From Polyangiaceae bacterium (GTDB lineage: Bacteria; Myxococcota_A; Polyangia; Polyangiales; Polyangiaceae), in the NCBI GenBank assembly GCA_050287085.1, contig JBNKBE010000020.1, positions 32,001-96,000 of the forward strand: 64,000 nt of DNA, given 5' to 3'. A program made the translations under genes and the position numbers. This document shows, one piece after another, positions 10,258-31,049 of this stretch (its first letter is position 1; each line of letters begins with the position of its first letter). Under the pieces are notes generated by a model. It was not told where the DNA came from and made no database searches. It saw only the letters and a program-made list of their open reading frames with translations.

Positions 10258-10329
10258 AGGCGCGTAGCTCAGTGGTAGAGCACTACATTGACACTGTAGG
10301 GGTCGGCAGTTCAATCCTGCCCGCGCCTA
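10258..10329 (+). tRNA. tRNA-Val(GAC); CCA not encoded
   Basis: Acceptor AGGCGCG/CGCGCCT, D-arm GCTCAGTGGTAGAGC, anticodon arm CTACA-TTGACAC-TGTAG, T-loop GTTCAATC. Confidence 0.96.
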
Positions 10330-10809
10330 CTGCCTGGTTGCTCGCGGGGTCCGCCCATAGGGAGACGGTCGACCTGATGGTGAGCGCGGCAGTAGGGCCT
10401 ATTGCTTTGGGAATGGGACGTCAAAGCGTCCGTTCGACAGCGAGAGGCATTGTGGCATTGACGCTGCGGTCGACGTCGCGACGAGTGGCGCTGGATGGCC
10501 ACAAGGTTGCGGCGCGCAAGGCCGGCGCAAGAACGTCTCCGAACCCGCACGCAGCACGCACGGATCCAAAAAGTCGTGTTTGAGTGGCAGACCGACCAAG
10601 GACACGTGCTGGTCTCACTTGCAGCCGACCGCGGGACGGCAGACCCTTCGGGCGCGACGGCCGAGTGGGCGGCGCAGCCTATACACAATTCAGCATGGCC
10701 GAGCGTCAGAGGCTTGGTCGCAGTAACGAGCACTTAGCGCTCGAACATGACCACGGGTCCACGACCCAGGTCATGCAAAGAGAAGCAATCGAGGAGAACA
10801 CCGCAAGTT

Positions 10810-11616
10810 ATGGCAATGGGAAGGCGCCCGCGACGCGAACCGCGTGGACCACAAATTCGGGTCAACCATCGTATCAGAGTTCCAGAGGTGCGGGTCATTG
10901 CTGACGATGGCGAGATGCTCGGCGTTCTCAGTACGCAGGAGGCTCTGCGCAAGGCTCGGGAACGCGGACTGGACTTGGTTGAGGTCAACCCTAAGAGCAA
11001 TCCTCCTGTCTGCAAGATTCTCGACTTCGGCAAGTACAAGTACGACGAGAAGAAACGCGCCAATGAGGCCAAGAAGAAGCAGACGGTCGTCGAGCTGAAA
11101 GAGGTTAAGCTCCGCCCCAAGACCGACGATCACGACCTCAATGTTAAGCTTCGGGCAGCCCGTCGTTTCGTCGAGGCCGGCAACAAGGTCAAGTTTACGG
11201 TGCGCTTCCGGGGGCGTGAAATAACTCATCCGGAACGGGCTCGCATGCAGCTCGATTGGATCCTTGATAACATCATGGATATCGCCAATCTGGAGCAGCG
11301 TCCGCAAATGGAGGGCCGCACGATGAGCGTCATCATCGCCCCCAAGCCGCAGATCATGCAGAAGATTCAGGCAGAAAAGGCCTCTGCGGCGAGCCAAGCG
11401 AAGCGCACGAGGGACGCTGGCGGCGTCCGCGACGCCAACTCGCCGGATGACGATGACGACCAGGACGACGATGACATCCTGGACGACGACGACCGGGACG
11501 ACGACGACGACGACCGGGACGACGACGACGACGACCAGGACGACGACGACGACGACCGGGACGACGACGACCAGGACGACGACGACCAGGACGACGACGG
11601 CAACCGGGACGACTAG
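10810..11616 (+). CDS. infC: Translation initiation factor IF-3 with an Asp-rich C-terminal extension
   Basis: RVNHRIRVPEVRVI, LDLVEV...PPVCKILDFGKYKY, KEVKLRPKTDDHD, VRFRGRE. Start uncertain (ATG 10810 or 10816). Confidence 0.95.
   Translation: MAMGRRPRREPRGPQIRVNHRIRVPEVRVIADDGEMLGVLSTQEALRKARERGLDLVEVNPKSNPPVCKILDFGKYKYDEKKRANEAKKKQTVVELKEVKLRPKTDDHDLNVKLRAARRFVEAGNKVKFTVRFRGREITHPERARMQLDWILDNIMDIANLEQRPQMEGRTMSVIIAPKPQIMQKIQAEKASAASQAKRTRDAGGVRDANSPDDDDDQDDDDILDDDDRDDDDDDRDDDDDDQDDDDDDRDDDDQDDDDQDDDGNRDD
11446..11613 (+). repeat. (GAC)n-based coding repeat with CAG/CGG interruptions (poly-Asp tail of IF-3)
   Basis: 56 codons, 44 of them Asp. Confidence 0.92.
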
Positions 11617-13502: not shown

Positions 13503-13575
13503 GGGGCCGTAGCTCAGCTGGGAGAGCGCATGACTGGCAGTCATGAGGTCAGGGGTTCGATCCCCCTCGGCTCCA
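13503..13575 (+). tRNA. tRNA-Ala(GGC); CCA not encoded
   Basis: Acceptor GGGGCCG/CGGCTCC with the G3:U70 Ala determinant; anticodon arm CATGA-CTGGCAG-TCATG; T-loop GTTCGATC. Confidence 0.97.
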
Positions 13576-13576
13576 C

Positions 13577-18427: not shown

Positions 18428-18653
18428 CGCTCGCTTCATGCTCGCCCTCAGCAGCTCGCTGCGATAGCCGTCCATAGCTAAACACACCGCCGCAGCGGCC
18501 GCACGTTCCCACATGGTAGCGTGCAGCGTCGGCACACCCGCCCCTCGCCGTTCGACCTGAGCGGCCGAATTCCATTCGCAATCGGTCGCACCGTGCTGGA
18601 AAATCGCGGACGTCGACCTATACTGCTCATCTTCACGAGGGAGCAGGTAAGCA

Positions 18654-19388
18654 ATGAACGAGCTGTTGGCGACCAGTCTGGCATTTCCAACGGTTGTCTA
18701 CAGCGTGGCCCTCGGCGTGTGTCTGCTGTACTGGGCGCTGGTATTCTTGGGCGCGTTGGGTGTCGACTTGACCGGCGACGGGGACGCCGATGTCGACGCC
18801 ACAGATAGCACAGGATCGGCCCCGGCGGTTATGGGGCTCATTGGATTGAGTCACTTGGGCCAAGTCCCCATCACGGTGGCCTTCAGCCTGGTCTCCCTCT
18901 TCGGCTGGTTCGTCAGTGGCTTGCTAAGCCGTAGAGAGGCTCTACTCGGGGCGTTTGTCTCCGAATCCGTCCTACACATCCTTGTACTGTTGGTAGCCTT
19001 GCTCGTAGCCATACGCATTGCGGGGTGGGCCGCCCTTCCACTGGCTCCGCTGTTTGACGCCCACCACGCACCGTCGCGGCATAGCTTGGTTGGGCGTGTG
19101 GTCGAGGTCTCAACGGGCGAGGTCAATCGCCGCTTCGGTCAGGCACGCCTGGAGGACGGCGGCGCTGGACTGGTTCTGCAGGTCCGTTGTGACCCGAGTC
19201 GCGAACTACGGCGCGGTCAACAGGCGCTCATCATCGAACACAACGATGCGCTCGAATTCTACGAGGTCGAACCGATGGACGCACTGCTGCATGCAACCTC
19301 CAATGACCACCACCTCCCGAGTCTTTCAGCCCCCGAATCAACGGGGTTCAAACCAGGAAAGGCTACAACCCCAAATGAAGATACGTAG
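18654..19388 (+). CDS. YqiJ/DUF1449-like (NfeD-type) membrane protein with C-terminal OB-fold
   Basis: Three TM segments, acidic DLTGDGDADVD loop, G-x-VP motif, SLVGRV...FGQARLEDGGAGLVLQVR...RGQQALII; directly upstream of a flotillin. Confidence 0.8.
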   Translation: MNELLATSLAFPTVVYSVALGVCLLYWALVFLGALGVDLTGDGDADVDATDSTGSAPAVMGLIGLSHLGQVPITVAFSLVSLFGWFVSGLLSRREALLGAFVSESVLHILVLLVALLVAIRIAGWAALPLAPLFDAHHAPSRHSLVGRVVEVSTGEVNRRFGQARLEDGGAGLVLQVRCDPSRELRRGQQALIIEHNDALEFYEVEPMDALLHATSNDHHLPSLSAPESTGFKPGKATTPNEDT

Positions 19389-19517
19389 CCTGAGACGATA
19401 GGTGACTGAAGCGGAGTTCAAGACCCCGAGGCAGCTGTTGCGTGCAAAGAAGGACACGCAAGACGCGGAATGCCGGTGAGCAATGACCACCGGTCATCGC
19501 AGAAAGTAGTACGGATC

Positions 19518-21722
19518 ATGAGTGAAATAATGCAGGTGGACCTGCTCGGACTGGGAATCGCAGTAGGACTCATCTTCATCATCCTGGTCGGGTTGTTGAC
19601 CCTGGTTGCGCGCTTCTATCGCAAGGTGGACCAAGGGCGAGCCCTCATCGTGAACACGATGCGGCAGGAGCCGATTGTGACCTTCACTGGGCGCACGGTA
19701 TTTCCGATTATTCACCGTGCTGAAGAGATGGATATTTCGGTCAAGACGATCGAGATCGATCGTCGCGGAAAAGATGGCCTTATCTGCAAGGACAACATCC
19801 GAGCTGACATAAAGGTTACCTTCTTTGTCCGCGTCAACAAGACGACGGAAGATGTCATGAAGGTCGCGCAAGCCATTGGGTGCGCACGCGCCTCGGACCA
19901 AGACACATTGGAGACCATTTTCGTTGCGAAGTTCTCCGAAGGCCTGAAGACGGTAGGTAAGCGGCTTGAGTTCGAAGAACTCTATTCTAAGCGCGACGAA
20001 TTTCGCGACGCGATCATTGATGTGATCGGCAAAGACCTCAATGGGTTCATTCTCGACGACGCCGCGATCGACTATCTGGAACAGACGTCTCTTGCCGCGC
20101 TAGACCCGAGCAACATCCTGGACGCCCAGGGTATTCGCAAGATCACCGAGCTGACGGCAGCGCAGAACGTGCGCACCAACGATCTCAAACAGGAAGAGCG
20201 GAAGGCAATCCGCAAGAAGGACGTCGAGGCGGAGGAAGCGATCTTGGAACTGGACCGCCAAGCCGCAGACGCAGCAGCCAAGCAGCAACGAGAGATCGCT
20301 GTCATTGTGGCGCGTGAAGCGGCGGAGACCCTCCGGGTGCAAGCTGAGGAACGCAAGAAGGCCGAGCTCGCGCGCCTCAAACAGGAAGAGGACGTCCAGG
20401 TTCAAGAACAAAGCAAGTTGCGGCAAATCGAAATCGCCCAGAAAGGGAGAGAGAGAGTTGTCGCGGTGGAGAATGAGCGAGTGGAGAAAGACCGCGCGCT
20501 CGAAGCCATTGCTCGGGAACGTGAAGTCGAACTGCAGCGCATCGACAAGGAAAAGGCGCTCGAGGTTGAGCGCAAGGCGATCGCCGAGGTCGTCGCGGGT
20601 CGCGTCAGCGTCGAGAAAGGCGTGGCTGAAGAAGAAGAACGCATCAAGGACGTACGGGTGGTCGCAGACGCCAAACGCAAGAAAGAAGCAAAGGTGATCG
20701 GCGCCGAGGCAGAGGCGCAAGAGAAGCTCGTTGTTCAGATAAAGTCTGCTGAAGCCTCGGAGCAGGTCGCTCGCCACAAGGCCAAAGAGGAGTTGGTCAT
20801 CGCCGAGGCGAAACTTGAGGCATCCGATCGCCTGGCCCGTGCAAAGATCCGTGAAGCAGACGGCGCACAAGCCGAGTATGCAGCTCAAGGACTCGCCGCG
20901 GCCAAGGTCAAGGAGGCCGATGCCCTGGCTGTTGAAAAGCTTGGCTCAGCAGAGGCCCGCATCGCGCTGGAAAAGGCTCAAGCCGAAGCCAAGGGAGAAG
21001 AAGAAACCGGCATGGCGCGCATTCGCGTACGCGAAGCCGAGGCCCATGCGATCGAGCGACAAGGGGCTGCGGAAGCCACCGCCACCAAGGACATGCTGGT
21101 CGCCCAGGCCGCAGGCGAGGAGTCCAAGGGACTGGCCGCGGCCAAGATCAAAGAAGCGGACGCCGCAGCGACAGAAAAGCTCGCCGTTGCCGAGGCAGCA
21201 GGCATCAAGGAGCGTATGAGCGCGGAGGCCTCCGGCCTAAGCGAGAAAGCAAAGGCGCTCCAGGCACTGTCCGGCGAAGCGCGTGCCCACGAGGAATACC
21301 GACTGCAGCTCGAGCAGCAATTGCAGCTGGAAAAGGAGCGCCTCGCTGCGCGACGTGACATTGCATCCGACCAGGCCCAAGTGATGGCCACCGCGATGGG
21401 CCAAGCCAAGATCAATATCGTGGGCGGTGACGGCTCGTTTCTCAATCAATTCTTCAAAGCGGTAAGCCTGGGACAAGCGGTCGATGGTGCCGTCGGCAGT
21501 AGCGAACTGCTGACATCCGCGACGGACGACTACAAGAGCGGCGCAGCTAGCCTCCGGCAGGACGTCAAAGACGTTCTGAGCGGAGCTGCGCTCAACTCGG
21601 AGAGCCTGAAGAACCTATCTATCGTAGCCGCTCTCAACCACGTGATGCAGGCGTCTGGCCCTGAGCAGCAGTCGAAGCTGACTCAGCTTATCGAGCACGC
21701 CCGAAGCTTGGGGCTGAAGTAG
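19518..21722 (+). CDS. SPFH/band-7 flotillin-family protein (YqiK-like) with a very long coiled coil
   Basis: N-terminal TM; RFYRKVDQGRALI, GLICKDNIRADIKVTFFVRVN, NILDAQGIRKIT; about 400 aa of AEA/EAE-rich coiled coil. Confidence 0.92.
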   Translation: MSEIMQVDLLGLGIAVGLIFIILVGLLTLVARFYRKVDQGRALIVNTMRQEPIVTFTGRTVFPIIHRAEEMDISVKTIEIDRRGKDGLICKDNIRADIKVTFFVRVNKTTEDVMKVAQAIGCARASDQDTLETIFVAKFSEGLKTVGKRLEFEELYSKRDEFRDAIIDVIGKDLNGFILDDAAIDYLEQTSLAALDPSNILDAQGIRKITELTAAQNVRTNDLKQEERKAIRKKDVEAEEAILELDRQAADAAAKQQREIAVIVAREAAETLRVQAEERKKAELARLKQEEDVQVQEQSKLRQIEIAQKGRERVVAVENERVEKDRALEAIAREREVELQRIDKEKALEVERKAIAEVVAGRVSVEKGVAEEEERIKDVRVVADAKRKKEAKVIGAEAEAQEKLVVQIKSAEASEQVARHKAKEELVIAEAKLEASDRLARAKIREADGAQAEYAAQGLAAAKVKEADALAVEKLGSAEARIALEKAQAEAKGEEETGMARIRVREAEAHAIERQGAAEATATKDMLVAQAAGEESKGLAAAKIKEADAAATEKLAVAEAAGIKERMSAEASGLSEKAKALQALSGEARAHEEYRLQLEQQLQLEKERLAARRDIASDQAQVMATAMGQAKINIVGGDGSFLNQFFKAVSLGQAVDGAVGSSELLTSATDDYKSGAASLRQDVKDVLSGAALNSESLKNLSIVAALNHVMQASGPEQQSKLTQLIEHARSLGLK

Positions 21723-21733
21723 CAGTAGGCCCG

Positions 21734-24700
21734 ATGTCTGCAGAACTAGACGCCTCTGAGCGCAGCGGTGGCAGCTACGAGGTCATCCGTGCCCGTTTGC
21801 TCAAGCACGCCGCTGTGCTCCGCGAACGCGCACAGAAGCTCAACACGGAGCGCAGTGAACGGTTCGGCGGTCAGGAGCTACGCGCGGTAAAAAACCTGCG
21901 CGTGCGCACCGAGAACAACTGCATTCCGTGCGACATCGCCCAAGTCCAAGGGCATCTGCTCTTTGGCTTCAATGTGTTCATGGGACTTAAGCCGGAAACG
22001 ACAGTGCCGGACGTCCTCACCCTGCACCATCTGGCAACAAGTGCCGAAGAAGTCGAACTTTCGCGCCTTTCCTCCGACTCCCCGAGCGCCGCGTTTTTGT
22101 CGGAGGGCGCGTTCGTCAATGAGTTCACGGAGCTGTATCGCTTCTACAAGGAAACGCGGCTCGCGCAGCTGGTACGACAAGAGAACAAGCTGCTAGCCAT
22201 CTTCCGAATTGGACAGCGAGCTGAGGACAAGCGCGTCTTTCGCTGGGCCCTAGGTAGCGACGGCGCAGCTACATACATCGACAATCGCGGTGAACGCGAC
22301 CATCTGCCCCCGCCCCAGCACGACTTCGAATGGACCCTGGCCACTCGCAACGACCAGGTTTCCGGACGACATCCCCATGTGTCGATTCTAGGTGAAGTCT
22401 TCGTGGAGACGGTGGGGGGAGATCTCACCATCAAGGTAGAAAACAACACGGAAAGCGGCGAAGGCATCCTTTCGGAGCCCGTGGCGGAGCCGCGTCAAAC
22501 CCTGGACGACGCAGAATACTCCTACGCCCGGCTGGGCGCTCTCATATTGCTGCGGATCCTTCCGTACAACGAGCAAAACCACCGCTACTTCGTCTTCGAC
22601 ATCCGTACGCGCAGGGTCGCTCGCATCGATGCTATCGGGCTGTCCTGTGTCCAACTACCGGAAGACCACGGCATCATCTTCCCTGGTGGCCATTTCCTTC
22701 CGGGCGGCGAAAGCAAAGTTTTCGACGGCGACTTTTCTGGGTTCACGTTCGAGCGCACGGTGCGTTCACCGAATGGCGAAGATGTACTCTACGTCTTTCA
22801 TCGAGTTGTGGACGGCGCGTACCGGCTTCTGTCTTACAATCTGATCCGAAAAGAACTGCAGACCCCGCTCTTGTGCCACGGCTACTCCCTCTTTGAGGAC
22901 GGCGCTATGGTCGTATTCAAGGCTGGTGACGAGCCCACCCGGGTGCATGTGTTGCAGCTCTGGAGCACCCCATTCGTGTCTGCCGAGCATGCGGCAAAGC
23001 AGCCCGAGGACCACAGCCCTCTCGGCCGCATCGGCAACGCGGAGCTCGTGCGTGGCATCTCCGACGTGCTGACGATAGTGCGGGATTCGGAGGCAGCGAG
23101 CACGCGCCAAGGCTTCGAAGATCTCGTCGCCGGCTGCGTGCGAGCCCTGGACGGCTACTATTGGCTGGGGCAGGAAGAGGTCTTCAATCTTGCAGCCGAA
23201 GTCAAGGCCGTTCGCGAAAGCGCTGAACGGGTCTTGGACGAGTTTGACAAGGTGGTCGAAGCGCGTCGCATAGCGAGCGAAGCCCTGGCACAAGCAAAGT
23301 CAGCTCAGGAAGCGTTGATAGCGTCACTTCGCTTGGACAGCTTCACAGGGGTGGCGCAGTTTATGAGTGCCCTTGCGGACCTTCGCCGCCAGCGTGGTCA
23401 CCTCATCTCCCTCAAGGAAACGCGCTACATCGACCTCGAAGCGCTCTCGAAGCTCGAGCGACAGGTAGTCCATGCCTTCGAAGCGACCGGTAGCGCGACG
23501 GCTCAGTTTCTGCTCCGTCCGGACGCTCTAGCACCCGTCGTGTCGAACTTGGAGGATATTCTCCAGCAGATCGAAACGGCGCAGAAGACACCCGTGCTGG
23601 TGCAGCAGTCCACACGACTCGAACGCGTCAGCGAGGGACTCAATGTGCTTTCCGACGTGGTTGCCAGCCTCCAAACGGATGACCCAACGGACCGTACACG
23701 GATCCTGCAGCATGTAAGCGAGGTGTTTGCTCATCTCAACCGGGTGCGTGCCACCGAGACAGCCCGCCGCAAAGAACTCATCACCGTGGAGGGCCAGGCC
23801 GAGTTCGGAGCCCAGTTCGCCCTGTTCGCACAAACGCTTGCAAGTGCACTGACTGCCGCCACCACCGTGTCCAGCTGCGACGACCAGCTGTCGCGATTGC
23901 TTGTGCAATTGGAAGAGCTCGAGGCCCGATTCTCCGAGTTTGACGACTTCGTGGTGCAACTGGCCGTGAAACGCGACGAGGTCTATGAGACCTTCACCCA
24001 GCGCCGCCAGTCGCTGCTCGACCGACAGCAGGCGCGCGGGCGGAGCCTCGAACAAGCCGCCGCTCGCATCGTCCAGAGCATCGCGAGACGCGCCGATTCG
24101 TTCAAGAATGCCAGTGACCTCAATGCCTATTTCGCCAGCGACGCGATGGTGCTCAAAGTTCACCAAATCGCGGAGCAACTCAAGGAGCTGGGCGACGCCA
24201 CGCGCAGCGACGAGGTGGAATCCAAACTGAAAACAGCGCGTCAGAACGCGCTCCGGGCCCTGCGCGACAAGAGCGAGCTGTTCGCCGCCGGTGAGAATGT
24301 TATTCAGCTGGGAGACCATCTATTCAACATCAACACTCAGGCTCTTGAGTTGACGCTCTTGCCTGAGGAGAAGCAGCTCGTGTTCTCACTCACGGGTACA
24401 GACTTCAGAGAGCCCGTCACGGACGCACGACTGACGGGTAGCGAGACGTTTTGGACGCAAAGCCTCGCGTCCGAGAATGCCACCGTTTATCGCGCCGAAT
24501 ACCTGGCCGCGAGCCTGCTATTTGCCGCCGAAGACGGAGCCCAGAAGCTCTCGCTTCAGGCGCTGCGCGATGCTCTGCGCGAAGAGCGGCTACTAACTCT
24601 GGTGCAGGCGTTCGCTGCAGACCGCTACTCCGAGGGCTACGAGCGGGGAGTGCACGACACTGACGCTGCCCGGATCCTAGAGCAATTGCTTCCCTTATAC

Positions 24701-26962
24701 GAGGCCTCACCCGCACTCCGCTTCACGTCTGTAGACCGGGCCCTGGCAGGTGCCTGGTGGTGGCTTCACGGGCAGACCGACTTCGGTCAACGACTGCTGC
24801 GGCAAGCGCGAAGTTTCAAGCGCATGCATGAACACTTGGGAGGCCACTGGGCGGGCACAGAGTTGGAAGCGGAACTGACTTGCGTGCTGCAGAACGACCT
24901 CAAGCAGGCGGGGTTCACTTTGCAGGGCGGACTGCAGGGCAACTTGAGCGACGCCGCCCGCTTCTTGATTGGGCAGCTGGGCAAGGAACGCTTCGAGCTG
25001 GACACCGCGCGCGCCGCTGCGGAGCTCGCAACCGGGCTACGACAAGAACTGGAACGCCGGAGCGCCCGCCGCGAACTGGAGCAGGAGCTAGCGGCCTTGG
25101 AAAAGGCACCAGCCCAGGCGCTCGAGCTCGCGACACATTGGTGCGCGCAGTTTGCAACGGCACACGCCCCAAGCCAGCGCGAGTTTGCTAGCGAAGCCGG
25201 GCTACTCCTCCTTTCTGAACGACAGGTGCCACGCTCCGTGACCAGCGCGCGCGTGGATACGACGGTCGCCGACCTGCTCGGCTCTCACCCGCGGATCATC
25301 GACCGCCAGCTAAACCTCCGATTGGACGAATTTCTAGCACGGCTGGGGCGCTTCGCGAAGGAGACGGTGCCGGCCTACAACACCTACCGCGCGCTGCGAC
25401 AAGTGCTGATTGAGGAGAAGCGACACCAGCTGCGCCTGGAAGAGTTCAAGCCGCGAGTGCTTTCGTCCTTCGTGCGCAACCGGCTGGTGAGCGAGGTCTA
25501 TCTCCCGCTCATTGGCGCAAACTTCGCCAAACAGCTCGGTGCTGCGGGCGCCAAGAAGCGCACCGATCTGATGGGGCTACTCCTACTCATCTCGCCCCCC
25601 GGCTACGGAAAAACCACTTTGATGGAATACGTGGCAAATAGACTTGGCCTCGTTTTCGTCAAGGTCAACGGCCCGGCCCTGGGCCATTCGGTCTTGTCGC
25701 TGGACCCATCAGAGGCGCCCAACAAGACTGCCCAGCAAGAAGTCGAAAAGCTGAACTTCGCGCTCGAGCTTGGCAACAATGTAATGCTGTATCTTGACGA
25801 CATTCAGCACACCAACCCTGAGTTTCTGCAGAAGTTCATTTCGCTATGCGACGCTCAGCGCCGGATCGAAGGCGTTTGGAAGGGTCGGACGCGCACGTAC
25901 GACCTGCGTGGCAAGAAGTTCTGCGTCGTCATGGCAGGAAACCCATACACCGAGTCCGGAGAGAAGTTCCAAATCCCCGACATGCTCTCAAACCGCGCAG
26001 ACACCTACAACTTGGGCGACGTACTGGCAGGAAGGGACGATGTGTTTGCGCTGAGCTACCTGGAAAATGCCCTCACCTCCAACCCGGTACTCGCACCACT
26101 CTCGCTTCGGTCACCGCGCGACGTACACACCTTTCTGCGCATGGCTAGCGATCCGGTCGGACAAGAGCTCCCCGCTTTGGAACATGCCTATTCGGCAGCA
26201 GAGTCAGATGACATCACCCGGACGTTTCGTCTGCTCATGGCCGTGCAGCGTATCGTATTGCGAATAAACATGGAGTATATCGCCTCCGCGTCCATGGACG
26301 ATTCGTTCCGAACGGAGCCGGCTTTCAAGCTGCAAGGAAGCTACCGTAACATGGCCAAGCTGGCCGAAAAGGTGGCTCCAGCCATGAACGACGCAGAACT
26401 GCAGGCGCTGCTCGACGACCACTATACGTCAGAAGCACAAACGCTCACAACGGGCGCAGAGCACAACCTGCTGAAGCTGGCGGAGCTACGGGGGCGTCTC
26501 ACACCGGAGCAGACGCAGCGTTGGGAGGACATCAAGAGAAGCTATCAACGCGAGCGTGCACTAGGAGGGCAAGGAGCGGACTCAGCGACGCGTCTGATAG
26601 GGCAGTTGGGACAGGTCGGCGAACAGATCGCAGGGATTCGCGAGGTGATTGCACTCAGTGGCAAGCGTGAGCAGCCACCCTGGGTGGCCGCGCATATGCA
26701 GCGGCTAGAGTCCGCCATCGAGCAGCTGAGGGGCGCGCGCTTCGATATCTTGGTCAAGAACGAGCCGCCGCCGGGGATCGGTGAGCTATTAACCCAGCAG
26801 GTTGATATCCTCGAGAAGACACTGGTACCCTTTCTGCGCGTCGCAACGGAGCGACTCGACGATAGTCTCGAGTTGCGCAAGCGTCTGGACACGTTCATCG
26901 CGGAGCTGAGAACGGTGGACGGGCTACTGCGCAGGCAATCGGATCTCGGGCCCAAGACGTGA
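21734..26962 (+). CDS. Large AAA+ ATPase (DUF3686 / so-called 'DNA repair ATPase' family)
   Basis: GGSYEVIRARL start; beta-rich N-terminal ~420 aa; long helical/coiled-coil middle; Walker A LISPPGYGKTT, Walker B MLYLDDIQH, MAGNP, candidate Arg finger MLSNRAD. Confidence 0.85.
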   Translation: MSAELDASERSGGSYEVIRARLLKHAAVLRERAQKLNTERSERFGGQELRAVKNLRVRTENNCIPCDIAQVQGHLLFGFNVFMGLKPETTVPDVLTLHHLATSAEEVELSRLSSDSPSAAFLSEGAFVNEFTELYRFYKETRLAQLVRQENKLLAIFRIGQRAEDKRVFRWALGSDGAATYIDNRGERDHLPPPQHDFEWTLATRNDQVSGRHPHVSILGEVFVETVGGDLTIKVENNTESGEGILSEPVAEPRQTLDDAEYSYARLGALILLRILPYNEQNHRYFVFDIRTRRVARIDAIGLSCVQLPEDHGIIFPGGHFLPGGESKVFDGDFSGFTFERTVRSPNGEDVLYVFHRVVDGAYRLLSYNLIRKELQTPLLCHGYSLFEDGAMVVFKAGDEPTRVHVLQLWSTPFVSAEHAAKQPEDHSPLGRIGNAELVRGISDVLTIVRDSEAASTRQGFEDLVAGCVRALDGYYWLGQEEVFNLAAEVKAVRESAERVLDEFDKVVEARRIASEALAQAKSAQEALIASLRLDSFTGVAQFMSALADLRRQRGHLISLKETRYIDLEALSKLERQVVHAFEATGSATAQFLLRPDALAPVVSNLEDILQQIETAQKTPVLVQQSTRLERVSEGLNVLSDVVASLQTDDPTDRTRILQHVSEVFAHLNRVRATETARRKELITVEGQAEFGAQFALFAQTLASALTAATTVSSCDDQLSRLLVQLEELEARFSEFDDFVVQLAVKRDEVYETFTQRRQSLLDRQQARGRSLEQAAARIVQSIARRADSFKNASDLNAYFASDAMVLKVHQIAEQLKELGDATRSDEVESKLKTARQNALRALRDKSELFAAGENVIQLGDHLFNINTQALELTLLPEEKQLVFSLTGTDFREPVTDARLTGSETFWTQSLASENATVYRAEYLAASLLFAAEDGAQKLSLQALRDALREERLLTLVQAFAADRYSEGYERGVHDTDAARILEQLLPLYEASPALRFTSVDRALAGAWWWLHGQTDFGQRLLRQARSFKRMHEHLGGHWAGTELEAELTCVLQNDLKQAGFTLQGGLQGNLSDAARFLIGQLGKERFELDTARAAAELATGLRQELERRSARRELEQELAALEKAPAQALELATHWCAQFATAHAPSQREFASEAGLLLLSERQVPRSVTSARVDTTVADLLGSHPRIIDRQLNLRLDEFLARLGRFAKETVPAYNTYRALRQVLIEEKRHQLRLEEFKPRVLSSFVRNRLVSEVYLPLIGANFAKQLGAAGAKKRTDLMGLLLLISPPGYGKTTLMEYVANRLGLVFVKVNGPALGHSVLSLDPSEAPNKTAQQEVEKLNFALELGNNVMLYLDDIQHTNPEFLQKFISLCDAQRRIEGVWKGRTRTYDLRGKKFCVVMAGNPYTESGEKFQIPDMLSNRADTYNLGDVLAGRDDVFALSYLENALTSNPVLAPLSLRSPRDVHTFLRMASDPVGQELPALEHAYSAAESDDITRTFRLLMAVQRIVLRINMEYIASASMDDSFRTEPAFKLQGSYRNMAKLAEKVAPAMNDAELQALLDDHYTSEAQTLTTGAEHNLLKLAELRGRLTPEQTQRWEDIKRSYQRERALGGQGADSATRLIGQLGQVGEQIAGIREVIALSGKREQPPWVAAHMQRLESAIEQLRGARFDILVKNEPPPGIGELLTQQVDILEKTLVPFLRVATERLDDSLELRKRLDTFIAELRTVDGLLRRQSDLGPKT

Positions 26963-27171
26963 CCCACCTCGAGACGCGCACAGACATAACCTGTCCGGCC
27001 TGCGGTCATTCCGAGACCGAAGATATGCCCCTTGAGTATTGCCTGGTGCGCTACACCTGCGCGCACTGTGGGGAGCTGCTGCGCCCGCTCGCGGGCGACT
27101 GCTGTGTCTTCTGCTCCTACGCCAACAGGCCGTGTCCACCGATACAACTATCAGGCAAGACCTGCTGCTGA
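26959..27171 (+). CDS. GDCCVxC-domain small Cys-rich (metal-binding) protein
   Basis: ITCPACGH...EDMP...C...YTCAHC...LRPLAGDCCVFCSY...CPPIQ; 11 Cys in 70 aa; GTGA overlap with the ATPase stop. Confidence 0.88.
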   Translation: MTHLETRTDITCPACGHSETEDMPLEYCLVRYTCAHCGELLRPLAGDCCVFCSYANRPCPPIQLSGKTCC

Positions 27172-27205: not shown

Positions 27206-28768
27206 CTAGACGCCGCCCCAAACTCCGTCGACGGGAGCGGCGCCGTTCTTGTTGAACACCTCGTCCTGCAACTTGGACAGCGGATCCGCCCCCAGGAAGG
27301 GCTGCGCCGCCGTCAGCCAAATACTGTTGTGATGCCCATCGACTCGCTGGAAACCGCCGGGCTTCATCCCCAGCTTGGAGCCGCCAATGATGAGGGCCGA
27401 AGCGCCGTTGCGGTCGTGAGAGGGGTTGCCCACCTCGCTGACCATCGTGATGACGGTGCGATCCAACAAGCTCGCGCCGTCAGTCGCTAGCGGATCGGGC
27501 GTGGAGAGGAAGTCGTTAACGAACTTCGCCGTGTTTTCGAAGTACCAACGCTGAACGCTGACCATCGCATCCCAGATGTAGGCATTGTTGCCAGGACGCG
27601 CACCCTGATAGAAAGACGAGTCCAGGTTGCGGTGGCTGAGTGGGTGATGCATCCAGATGCGGTTCGGATCGTTCGGATCTGCACCCTTGAACGATACGTG
27701 ATTGGTACCGGGTGACCATTCGAAAGTGCCGACGCGGATGATGTCACACGCCATCGCCGAACGGATGATGCTCGCGTGAGCGGCGCCCACCTCCGCGTGC
27801 AGCGGAGCGTCGTCGGCACGAGCCTCAGGGTTACGGTAGTCACTGTTCGCATCCGAGTTGGCGCCCGTCAGGTTCGACTGCGGCAGCAAGGGCGCTTCAC
27901 ATACCGCGGCTTCCGGCGGGTTGTTGATCTGCTCCGAAAGCTGCATCTCCAACTTGCGAATTACGTCCGCATGAGCGTCGATCTTGGAGCGCTCGTTGGC
28001 CGGAGCCAGCGCCGACAGACGAGCCAGTTCACGCTGCGAATGGTCCAGCACGCTCTTGCGTTGCTTGAGCAAGCGCAACGCGTCCACGTCCGTCATCGCC
28101 CCTCCCGCCTGGAAGTCGCTGAACAAGTCGTTGTAAGCCGTTACGGGACTCAACGTCGGGCGCAGCGGCTCGTTCTCCATGATCTGCCCACCGGGCACCG
28201 CCGCCTGAATCGACTGCTTGCGGTAGCCGTAGGATAGGCAACGCGTGGACGTCTCGTAGGAGTCGACGCGCGAGTCGCAGATGACGTTGTAGTAGTCACG
28301 ACCGCCGCTCTTGAGATCCTCGACGTGGTTGAGGAGGATCTGATCCCAAGAGGGGCCACCCGCGCAGCCATCGTCGGTTTCACCACCGTTGGCACGCGTT
28401 CCAGGACCGTTGGCGCCGGTCGTCGAAAACGGGGTTCCGGCTTCGTGAGCGCCGCCACCAGGACATTGCATGCCATTCATGTTGAAGCCCAACATGATGT
28501 GGGTGTGGGGCTTCAGCTCCGGCGTAGCAAAAGGAGCAATGATGTAGCCCGCGCCGCCGTGGGTATCCGATACGGTGTAGTCAGCCCCGGTACCGGTTGG
28601 AACGAAGGCTTGTTGGATCGACCCACAGGGCCAACTGACCATCAGAAAACGCGGCGGCGAACCCGCGCCCTGGGCGGAGGCCTCCATATTGCGAAGGATA
28701 GCACCGTAACCAACGGCTCCGCCGACGGCGGCGAGAAATGAGCGTCGCGCAACTCGATAAGACTTCAT
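27206..28768 (-). CDS. DUF1552-like Tat-exported protein
   Basis: Twin-Arg ARRSFLAAVG; PPRFL, GGAHE, GPSWDQ, RKSVLD, KIDAH, AMACD, HHPLSH, SLLDRTV. Confidence 0.85.
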   Translation of the reverse strand: MKSYRVARRSFLAAVGGAVGYGAILRNMEASAQGAGSPPRFLMVSWPCGSIQQAFVPTGTGADYTVSDTHGGAGYIIAPFATPELKPHTHIMLGFNMNGMQCPGGGAHEAGTPFSTTGANGPGTRANGGETDDGCAGGPSWDQILLNHVEDLKSGGRDYYNVICDSRVDSYETSTRCLSYGYRKQSIQAAVPGGQIMENEPLRPTLSPVTAYNDLFSDFQAGGAMTDVDALRLLKQRKSVLDHSQRELARLSALAPANERSKIDAHADVIRKLEMQLSEQINNPPEAAVCEAPLLPQSNLTGANSDANSDYRNPEARADDAPLHAEVGAAHASIIRSAMACDIIRVGTFEWSPGTNHVSFKGADPNDPNRIWMHHPLSHRNLDSSFYQGARPGNNAYIWDAMVSVQRWYFENTAKFVNDFLSTPDPLATDGASLLDRTVITMVSEVGNPSHDRNGASALIIGGSKLGMKPGGFQRVDGHHNSIWLTAAQPFLGADPLSKLQDEVFNKNGAAPVDGVWGGV

Positions 28769-28773
28769 GGTTT

Positions 28774-30651
28774 TCAATTTCCTGGCGTGCGGATGGAAAG
28801 GGTATCCGAGGCAACAATCTCGGCAACAAGAGCACTGAAGCTCTTTTCCGGGAGCGCCTCGAAGGCGTTGGTGACCGCGCGAACCGCGCAGCTATTGGTG
28901 GGATGGTCCGGTTGTTCGGCGCGGGCGCTGCCTTGGCCTTCGTCAGCTAGCGCGTAGTTGATGAAGTTCATCGTCATGCACCGGGTGAGCGCGTTCGTCC
29001 CCCACGTGGGCTCCATCCGCAGCAACGCTTCGGCAAACTGCTCGGGTGTGCTCACCGTCGCGCGATCGGGAACCTGATCCCCATCCTGGTCGTAGCTGAA
29101 GGCCGTTGGCAACTTGGCCACCGTCCAGTTGGCGTCGATGGGATTGCCGTCCTTATCCGCGGTGCGATAACGTCCCACCGCATCGTAGTTCTCCAACACC
29201 ATGCCCATCGCGTCGAACTGCCCATGGCAGCCAGCACAGACCGTGCCTCGCATCGGATCCGCACGGAAGTCCGCCTTCTCCTTCTCGGTCCAGCCTTCTT
29301 GATCCGCAATCACACCCAGAATGGCAGGGTCGGTGGGCGGCGGCGGATTTTGGGAGCAAACCAGAGCTGCGTTTAGCGCAAGCCCGCGTCCCACAACCGA
29401 CGTACCGTTGGGACGAGACTTTGACGTGAGGAACGCCGCCAGGGTGAGCAAGCCGGAACGCCCTTCGGGCAGCTCCACCTCGGTAAACGTATTCTGGTCG
29501 TCCGTGGGTGCGTCGATGCCATACACGTCGTTGGCCAGCATGTTGTTTACCCAGCCCCGCCGCGTGGTGATGAGATCCCCGAGCGACCCTTCCCACAACA
29601 CGTGGGAGAGGAACTCCTGAGCTTCTCGATACATCGAGTTCTTCAGGCCGGAAGTCACCTCAAAGCCAGGGGTGGCATCCTCGTCCAGAACGATGCCCGG
29701 AACGGTGGTCAACTGGAAGTAGCCCGTCATAGCCGCTTCTAGATTGGCCTTGGCCTCGGGGGTCGCTAGCAAGCGCATCGCATGAGCTCGCAGTGTGTTC
29801 TTGTCAGACAGCTGCCCCGCGTCCGCCGCAGCTCGAAGCTCAGCATCCGGCGGGCCGTCGGTGAGGAAGTACGAAACCTCGCTAGCGATTTCGTGTTGGC
29901 TCAAGCTGCCCTGAATTTCGAAGCCATCACCGATTTCCGTACGGTACAAGAACCCCGGCGAAAGCAAGACCGCGTCGTAGCCGAATTGAACGGCCTCCGC
30001 GACGCTGCCCCCGTTGGTCTCCGTGAGCTCCGTCCACAGGGTCTGATATGAAGTCTTCTCCTCCTCAGACAAGGGACGTCGGTAAGCCTCCGTGGCAAAC
30101 GACAAGACCTTCTCTAGACCACAACCTGCGTCACACGCAGCTTCACCTTCAAACTCGCTCGCGACCAGCGTCATGGCACCGCGCGCGGCGCGATCCCGCA
30201 GGTCAAACTCGCTTTGGCCGAGGGTGGTACCCAACGTGGCCAGCGGCGGGAATGCGCGCAACGTCGCATCTACAACGTCCTCGCCTGCAAACAACTCGGC
30301 CGCTGCCTCGCCGAAGAGGGCCATGTAGGTATTGACCAACTGGTTGTCGGTCAACTTCACGACACGCTTTTGGGTCGTGACCTGATTGCCCACACACTCC
30401 CCCTCGGGAGGAGGAGGCAACACCATGCCACCACCGTTGCTCGTCCCGGCCGAATTCCCGGCGGCGCCACCGGCTCCGGCCATATCCCCACCGCCACCGG
30501 CTGTTGCGCTTCCAGCGCTGCCCGCCTGCGAACCGGCCATATCGGGGGGGTTGGCGTCGCCAGAACAGGCCGCCAAGGAGCTTGCCCCGAGCACCACGAG
30601 CGCAGCGCTCAGGGGTGTCATGAATCTAAATTTTAGCTGTCGCTTCGTCAT
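28774..30651 (-). CDS. DUF1592/DUF1588/DUF1595-type lipoprotein with a CxxCH motif
   Basis: Lipobox LAAC; FATEAYRRPL, LLSPGFLYRTE, SYFLTDGPPDAEL, RSGLLT, TSVVGRG, CAGCHGQFDAMGMVLENYDAVGRYR. Confidence 0.88.
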   Translation of the reverse strand: MTKRQLKFRFMTPLSAALVVLGASSLAACSGDANPPDMAGSQAGSAGSATAGGGGDMAGAGGAAGNSAGTSNGGGMVLPPPPEGECVGNQVTTQKRVVKLTDNQLVNTYMALFGEAAAELFAGEDVVDATLRAFPPLATLGTTLGQSEFDLRDRAARGAMTLVASEFEGEAACDAGCGLEKVLSFATEAYRRPLSEEEKTSYQTLWTELTETNGGSVAEAVQFGYDAVLLSPGFLYRTEIGDGFEIQGSLSQHEIASEVSYFLTDGPPDAELRAAADAGQLSDKNTLRAHAMRLLATPEAKANLEAAMTGYFQLTTVPGIVLDEDATPGFEVTSGLKNSMYREAQEFLSHVLWEGSLGDLITTRRGWVNNMLANDVYGIDAPTDDQNTFTEVELPEGRSGLLTLAAFLTSKSRPNGTSVVGRGLALNAALVCSQNPPPPTDPAILGVIADQEGWTEKEKADFRADPMRGTVCAGCHGQFDAMGMVLENYDAVGRYRTADKDGNPIDANWTVAKLPTAFSYDQDGDQVPDRATVSTPEQFAEALLRMEPTWGTNALTRCMTMNFINYALADEGQGSARAEQPDHPTNSCAVRAVTNAFEALPEKSFSALVAEIVASDTLSIRTPGN

Positions 30652-31049
30652 CGACTTCCTCGCCAAGGAGTTTAGAGCGAGAGCTCGGTTGTCGAGCGCT
30701 CTGGATGGTGCGCAGCGCGTTGGATGCGCCGAACATGCTTCTCAATCGTGATAACTACCCCTTCCGAAGGCAGAAATTCACTGAGTTCTCCACTGACAAG
30801 AGGGCGCTGCTAGCCATGGTGACATTATCCGTCATAGCGACAATTTGAAGAGGGCGATTGTGCGCTATCGTCCAGGAAGGAACCCCCGGACAACGATTTG
30901 AGGACACCACGAGAAACCAGCGTCTGGACTCCGGGCGGCAAAGAACAGGGTCCGCGCGCGCAGCTCGTCCGCGGTATCCACCCGGGCTGGGCAATTTCGA
31001 CGGGGCAGGTTCGCGGGTACACAGCTCGTCCGCCCAATGCCCGTCGCCC

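Follow-up and report, generated by a model that had tools for sequence, protein, structure and literature searches.

How SPFH cages open or turn over is an open question, and the AAA+ proteins known as partners of such cages are membrane proteases that are held inside the cage. A locus in a Polyangiaceae bacterium brings this question into focus. Within a window of 64,000 nucleotides (assembly GCA_050287085.1, contig JBNKBE010000020.1, positions 32,001 to 96,000 of the forward strand), three consecutive plus-strand genes encode a YqiJ/YuaF-like (short NfeD) membrane protein of the BacC type (18654..19388, 244 amino acids), a long flotillin (SPFH/Band 7) of the BacD type (19518..21722, 734 amino acids), and a giant ATPase of the BacE type that joins DUF3686 and DUF7902 to a single AAA+ module (21734..26962, 1742 amino acids). 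An ATPase that is soluble, has no protease, and accompanies one flotillin in many phyla is the best available candidate for a cage remodeler.

The locus corresponds to the bacCDE-type core, three genes long, of a putative membrane-stress module. The reading toward which we lean, if only modestly, is that the flotillin and the NfeD protein build a membrane cage and that the ATPase remodels this cage or frees its contents during envelope stress. We make no claim to a new operon: the locus is a further copy of one that has been described, its PspA-less form is also in print, and a fourth gene that overlaps the ATPase lies outside the system. What we add are exact counts of co-occurrence, a family-wide DD Walker B motif in the ATPase, genomes that carry the trio with no detectable PspA, and the quantization of flotillin stalk length in whole helical turns.

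Co-inheritance of the three genes

We followed the genes through two sets of genomes. The first consisted of 61 genomes, the host and 60 relatives; the second consisted of the best 80 of 534 loci in GTDB, of which 70 were scorable after setting aside 10 with a contig end within the ATPase or just ahead of its start. Among the 61 genomes, DUF3686 occurred in 11, and an orthologous flotillin (at least 61% identity over the first 261 residues) was found in exactly the same 11 and in none of the other 50; five other genomes have distant flotillins only, with 28 to 33% identity. In the GTDB set, the flotillin lies directly 5′ of the ATPase in 67 of the 70 scorable loci. In the remaining three, the orthologous flotillin is encoded elsewhere in the genome, each time beside a YqiJ partner, and a YqiJ gene is found 5′ of 55 of 57 full-length flotillins. 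Furthermore, the trio was present in all 8 of the plasmid-collection matches that we inspected (of 13), which span four phyla and include replicons of Pseudomonas, Proteus, Vibrio, Halomonas, Hymenobacter, Streptomyces, Nonomuraea, and Deinococcus. The genes for the YqiJ/NfeD protein, the long flotillin, and the giant ATPase are passed on together as a unit. An initial annotation of the window had proposed a scaffold of the SPFH type served by a dedicated AAA+ protein that has no protease, and both this co-occurrence and the fold of the ATPase support that proposal. That proposal would have been refuted by ATPase homologs that mostly occur apart from SPFH genes, which is not what the neighborhoods reveal.

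Two loci depart from the usual arrangement in minor ways. In one (L151, G034:C732:9373-14047), tandem flotillins, one orthologous and one distant (34%), stand between the YqiJ gene and the ATPase. In another (L156, G049:C10), the assembly has frameshifts in the ATPase gene and in both PspA genes, probably through sequencing error.

Architecture of the giant ATPase

The ATPase belongs to a large family (7,937 matches among 8,000 candidates), and its closest homologs are found in Myxococcota, several of them in Polyangiaceae. The profile searches proposed in the initial annotation returned DUF3686 at 641 bits, along with DUF7902 at 78 bits and one AAA domain over its cut-off, with AAA_5 also over cut-off. 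The initial annotation had further suggested kinship with the PA3728-PA3732 genes of Pseudomonas, and this was borne out: the protein is 47.8% identical over 1744 columns to a 1746-residue P. aeruginosa "DNA repair ATPase" (P0123) encoded in the same gene order. Judging from the organism, the name, and the gene order, that protein is probably PA3728/BacE; a published table lists PA3728 as an ATPase (PMC8190622).

Two AlphaFold2 models, covering residues 1-900 (pLDDT 87.6) and 846-1650 (pLDDT 89.8), suggest how the protein is built. The models predict a beta-rich, propeller-like head (residues 50-411) framed by a four-helix bundle, with helix 14-44 and helices 435-506 packing around it. This is followed by an arm (residues ~511-850) that is modeled as tandem antiparallel, spectrin-like three-helix bundles, and then by a helical domain, the AAA+ module, and a variable helical tail. 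When the 900-residue model was searched with Foldseek, the head resembled WD40 propellers in part (probability 1.0, TM-score ~0.4, root-mean-square deviation [rmsd] ~15 Å). The spectrin-like matches of the three-helix bundles were weak, with Z scores of ~10 to 11 that fall in a range common for helical bundles. The beta-rich N terminus and the one AAA+ module described in the initial annotation were recovered; the very long helical/coiled-coil body that it also described is modeled as a chain of three-helix bundles rather than a single coiled coil. Searches of PDB sequences with the ATPase returned P-loop matches only, and no usable match for the head outside DUF3686 was found in the Atlas. 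No transmembrane segment, HExxH motif, or recognizable protease or nuclease domain was found in the ATPase by hydropathy, motif, and Pfam searches.

The AAA+ module, as modeled, is of the MoxR/dynein type. Its best fold matches are CbbQ2 (Z 17.3, rmsd 3.7, 251 residues aligned) and NorQ (Z 15.8), followed by Mdn1 (14.3) and dynein (14.2), whereas Vps4 and FtsH score lower, at about 10.5 to 11. Thus the closest solved folds are the MoxR remodelers CbbQ and NorQ, midasin/Rea1, and dynein. The protein differs from MoxR ATPases in its 1,250-residue N-terminal head and arm, in its Walker B motif, and in having no adjacent VWA adaptor: no VWA partner gene flanks the locus in the window, and no recurrent VWA cluster was recognized among the 80 loci. 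The motifs of the ATP site are Walker A at residue 1288, Walker B at 1354, sensor I at 1401, the Arg finger at 1420, and sensor II at 1535. Across 240 homologs there is no variation in Walker A, the Arg finger, or sensor II, and insert segments typical of clade-7 pulling ATPases are conserved as well. The Walker B sequence, LDDIQH, places Asp at the usual catalytic Glu, a pair that is DD in 236 of the 240 homologs and DE in none, a correction to the initial description of the module as intact. Invariant positions are most numerous in the AAA+ module and its flanks and then in the head (residues ~200-400), and this conservation suggests that the head is a binding surface.

The membrane protein and the flotillin stalk

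Evidence for the identity of the first gene product comes from its features and its position. Hydropathy indicates three hydrophobic segments (residues 13-31, 73-91, and 102-120) followed by a soluble C-terminal part. The protein is 30% identical over 223 residues (E value 1e-12) to a DUF1449-annotated protein of Hymenobacter, whose gene occupies the same position 5′ of the same flotillin. A Pfam search with the protein itself gave no match; the NfeD/YqiJ-like identity that was first proposed is supported by the membrane segments, the annotated ortholog, and the genomic position.

The flotillin was recognized by Band_7 at 44.4 bits, over the cut-off, in a profile search of the genome; with hmmscan it missed the Band_7 cut-off, as do most of the family, with 10 of 58 members matching, and it had no match to the Pfam Flot domain. 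It scores 0.98 to flotillin clusters in the Atlas and is 42% identical to an annotated SPFH protein. Apart from a weak match to QmcA, searches of PDB sequences with the flotillin turned up no relative of solved structure. The protein consists of one transmembrane helix, the SPFH domain, a helical stalk of ~390 residues, and a C-terminal cap region.

In 58 aligned sequences, insertions and deletions in the stalk are confined to residues ~460-560, a zone made of 11-, 29-, and 40-residue repeats. Both anchors could be located in 50 loci, and the 13 different stalk lengths among these (306 to 426 residues) are in phase with a period of 3.64 residues (R = 0.96), a value that was reached by none of 5,000 random sets. 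The arm of the ATPase has no such helical-turn phase. Because the lengths differ by whole turns, the pattern fits a stalk that is one continuous helix, with the register between the SPFH base and the cap under selection, as would be expected in the wall of a cage. At 1.5 Å per residue, this variation would correspond to a range in cage height of ~18 nm.

Relation to described systems

The operon to which these genes belong has been described by Ravi et al. (2024, PMC11237479) as a run of CesT/Tir, PspA, YqiJ/YuaF, Band-7/flotillin, and an ATPase with a beta-propeller, a coiled coil, and an AAA+ domain. [quoted passage not shown] The locus here has the same three genes in the same order, plus the fourth, passenger gene; the PspA-less form, to which the initial annotation had pointed, was already in print. 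A mechanism, the AAA+ clade, and counts of co-occurrence are not given in the passages of that study that we consulted.

Its counterpart in Pseudomonas is the P. aeruginosa bacABCDEF operon (PA3732 onward), in which a short NfeD gene and then an SPFH gene precede the ATPase, as they do here. The genes bacA-F are cotranscribed and rise together (Wallart 2024, PMC10948618), PA3728-32 is induced on phage infection (PMC12041424), and phenotypes have been described for the PspA gene (Mace 2008, PMC2587700). Cotranscription and stress induction are features shown in P. aeruginosa only. The Polyangiaceae locus differs in lacking bacA (the YjfI chaperone), bacB (PspA), and bacF. Membership in the arc antagonism-resistance clusters of P. 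aeruginosa was considered and is wrong, as those are other genes (PMC8926400).

More distant parallels exist in the HflKC-FtsH and prohibitin-m-AAA cages, where an SPFH oligomer likewise has an AAA+ partner in membrane protein quality control. Unlike FtsH, the ATPase here is soluble, lacks the HExxH protease motif, and belongs to another AAA+ clade. In Staphylococcus aureus, an SPFH protein and an NfeD protein (FloA-NfeD) form a holdase that works without ATP (PMC11222466).

A proposed model of cage remodeling

By analogy with other SPFH proteins, the flotillin, through its one transmembrane anchor and with the help of the NfeD protein, may oligomerize into a tall cage that faces the cytoplasm and covers a patch of the inner membrane. 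The stalk of each subunit would be an unbroken helix, with a length adjusted by whole turns. The ATPase would form a ring and grip the cage or its contents through the beta-rich head on the spectrin-like arm, with the head replacing the VWA adaptor that MoxR ATPases normally use. ATP would then be spent on opening or disassembling the cage or on releasing damaged membrane proteins trapped within it. The ring, the gripping, and the use of ATP are the least certain parts. PspA, encoded elsewhere, would be an optional collaborator in the same stress response.

In a more specific version, which we regard as possible but doubtful, the giant ATPase is a dedicated disassembly motor that is independent of PspA and acts on flotillin cages as Vps4 acts on ESCRT-III. 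It would be a ring of the MoxR/dynein type that carries its own propeller-like adaptor on a spectrin-like arm and opens a tall cage, the height of which varies among species by whole helical turns. If this is true, the compartments that flotillins form in many phyla would not be passive rafts but would undergo active cycling.

Several observations weigh against cage remodeling. The DD pair is a departure from the canonical DE of Walker B, and an Asp at this position may indicate that ATP is hydrolyzed slowly and that the protein is a switch, not a motor. The lengths of the ATPase arm and the flotillin stalk are uncorrelated (rho 0.12, p 0.39, n = 50), which rules out the arm as a simple ruler of cage height. 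Furthermore, the genomes that carry the evidence for co-inheritance are related and the sets partly overlap, meaning that they are not independent samples. Deletion of the P. aeruginosa flotillin reduced biofilm by only ~20% and had no tobramycin phenotype (PMC13086221); the same study reports a patchy, probably horizontal spread. Finally, no experimental study of any ATPase of the BacE family was found in the literature that we searched, which did not extend to subscription journals or bioRxiv supplements. A complex prediction that paired the ATPase head (residues 10-510) with two copies of flotillin residues 495-734 scored 0.00 and is not evidence either way.

PspA and alternative functions

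In the first of the alternatives, the ATPase is a bacterial analog of Vps4 whose substrate is the ESCRT-III-like polymer of PspA, with the flotillin as no more than a platform and PspA supplied in trans by a CesT/Tir-PspA pair on contig C9. We consider this unlikely, although it has several points in its favor. PspA is encoded 5′ of the trio in Hymenobacter, on plasmid pQBR103, and in the bac operon of P. aeruginosa, and a different PspA lies directly 3′ of the ATPase in 7 of 80 loci. As the initial annotation stated, there is no PspA at the Polyangiaceae locus, which lacks the CesT/Tir (YjfI) and PspA genes directly upstream that mark the full bac/PSP operon. The genome does encode two PspA proteins elsewhere. 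One is on contig C9, 3′ of a CesT_Tir_1 chaperone (G000:C9:30046-31304; L103:4047-5305, minus strand), and a second, divergent one (G000:C15:39997-42633; L104) is flanked by genes for a VWA-domain protein and for a small membrane protein that belongs to no Pfam family. A PspA partner is thus available in trans, and a CesT/Tir and PspA pair of the same families as that on C9 heads the trio operon in Hymenobacter.

The distribution of the pair argues against a Vps4-like role. It is found elsewhere in the genome in all 10 relatives that have the ATPase, but among the 50 relatives without the ATPase a Tir match is still present in 38 and PspA in 42; the pair is near-core in the order and has no specific tie to the trio. 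In addition, a quick tree with long branches groups the C9 PspA with those of the order's own pairs, and the protein shares only 28% identity with the PspA linked to the trio in Hymenobacter. The initial annotation had allowed that an obligatory PspA partner elsewhere in the genome would make this simply the known operon split in two. Because the C9 protein sits among the order's own pairs, the locus is not one broken operon, as far as a quick tree can tell.

PspA is also scarce around homologous loci. It was upstream in none of 50 close loci with at least 1.5 kb of flank, and 8 of 80 loci had it at any position. Among the 80 genomes with the ATPase, PspA was found in 63 and not in 17, although a divergent PspA could be missed. 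These 17 are mostly Planctomycetota metagenome-assembled genomes of unstated completeness, but two of them, G113 and G124, are assembled into almost a single contig. When five PspA-negative genomes were queried with a divergent planctomycete PspA, no match was found, in a search that had no positive control. From these counts, PspA looks optional for the trio.

Some arrangements of PspA deserve mention in their own right. In six loci from Acidobacteria/Candidatus Marinacidobacterales (L059:15411-17984, L060, L061, L066, L069, and L070), a divergent PspA and an AAA ATPase of ~580 amino acids come directly after the giant ATPase, giving a five-gene, same-strand run with two ATPases; at L058:6896-7660, PspA stands alone. 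Plasmid pQBR103 of P. fluorescens (L110:10-13214) carries YjfI-PspA, a rhomboid protein, DUF2491, DUF350, DUF1190, and a glutathionylspermidine synthase along with the trio, a run that fuses the two PSP operon classes of Ravi et al. (2024). In the Polyangiaceae genome, a tRNA-like stretch lies just upstream of the C9 pair. A further Band_7 protein, YdjI-like by inspection, is followed by a zinc-ribbon protein with no adjacent PspA (G000:C6:3321-5609), and this couple resembles the pspA-ydj partners of Bacillus subtilis.

A second alternative follows from the ATP site itself. The ATPase could be a nucleotide-gated scaffold or sensor that binds ATP, turns it over slowly, docks on the cage, and switches a stress signal. 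The DD Walker B would suit such a protein, as its DDIQ resembles the slow switch ATPase DnaA, and the locus has no adjacent VWA, protease, or other effector gene. Yet the Arg finger, sensor II, and pulling-type inserts are all conserved and the nearest folds are mechanical remodelers, which makes a slow switch distinctly improbable in our view.

A dedicated defense against phages or competitors at the membrane, the anti-phage form of which had been suggested initially, is about as improbable, perhaps slightly more so. The patchy spread of the system (it occurs in 2 of the genus's 18 genomes and in 11 of the order's 61), its presence on some plasmids, and the phage induction of the P. aeruginosa locus are all in keeping with defense. 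Phage induction is, however, part of the ordinary Psp response, and the four proteins matched no model in PADLOC (2023 library). The surroundings are no more suggestive of a defense island. Matches were found in 3 of 39 other proteins of the window and, among proteins that flank 30 loci, in 6 of the 110 scanned (out of 153 candidates), and these were mostly generic: kinases, an AAA domain, a sigma54-activator-type ATPase, a MotB-like protein, and partial matches to a protease and to mad2, with one RmrA. No defense neighbor recurs in the 80 loci.

The last alternative, a DNA repair ATPase, has the Pfam and NCBI labels and a weak P-loop similarity to RuvB behind it but is scarcely credible, given that RuvB scores far below cut-off and over the P-loop only, that no nuclease or DNA-binding family was found, and that the partners are always membrane proteins; the label lacks support, as noted initially, and is probably wrong on thousands of database entries.

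The fourth gene and the surrounding region

The initial annotation described four co-oriented genes, with 11 bp between the flotillin and the ATPase and a GTGA overlap leading into the last gene. All four open reading frames are present (18654-27171) with the same spacing, and the stop of the ATPase and the start of the fourth gene share GTGA. That fourth gene (26959..27171, plus strand, 70 amino acids) is a real gene for a small Cys-rich, probably zinc-binding protein of the GDCCVxC family (NF041374, 90.5 bits against a cut-off of 40). Its inclusion in the system did not survive comparison: it lies beside the ATPase in none of 80 homologous loci, with 500 bp or more of downstream sequence available in 73 of them. 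The family was found in 4 of the 60 relatives, in unrelated surroundings; three of these have no such ATPase, and in the fourth its gene is on a different contig. The 4-bp overlap is no sign of partnership, because homologous ATPase genes overlap in the same way with genes for a rhodanese (three loci), a PEGA protein, and a PspA. The gene is a passenger, and no paper on "GDCCVxC" was found in the literature searched.

The flotillin probably starts at ATG 19518, near which most homologs begin; a start at 19470 would give 750 amino acids. Upstream of the first gene, the TATACT hexamer noted initially as a −10-like box is present on the plus strand (18619..18624), with TGGAAA 16 bp upstream of it. 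It is not significant as promoter evidence, given that two sigma70-like sites were counted against 1.3 ± 1.1 in shuffled sequence and that no −10 box at a fixed position was found upstream of 50 homologs. A sigma54 site was also rejected: none was found upstream of the locus, a further difference from the bac operon, and none of 51 upstream regions carries one.

The G+C content of the four genes matches that of the surrounding DNA, and a kelch-like protein is encoded directly upstream of the trio. On the other side, a DUF1552 and DUF1592/1588/1595 gene pair on the minus strand (27206-30666) converges on the locus; such pairs are common in Myxococcota and Planctomycetota. Farther away in the window are genes for tRNA-Val (10258-10330) and tRNA-Ala (13503-13576), neither of which adjoins the locus, and an open reading frame (10747-11616), IF-3-like by inspection, that ends in a very long, Asp-rich C-terminal tail.

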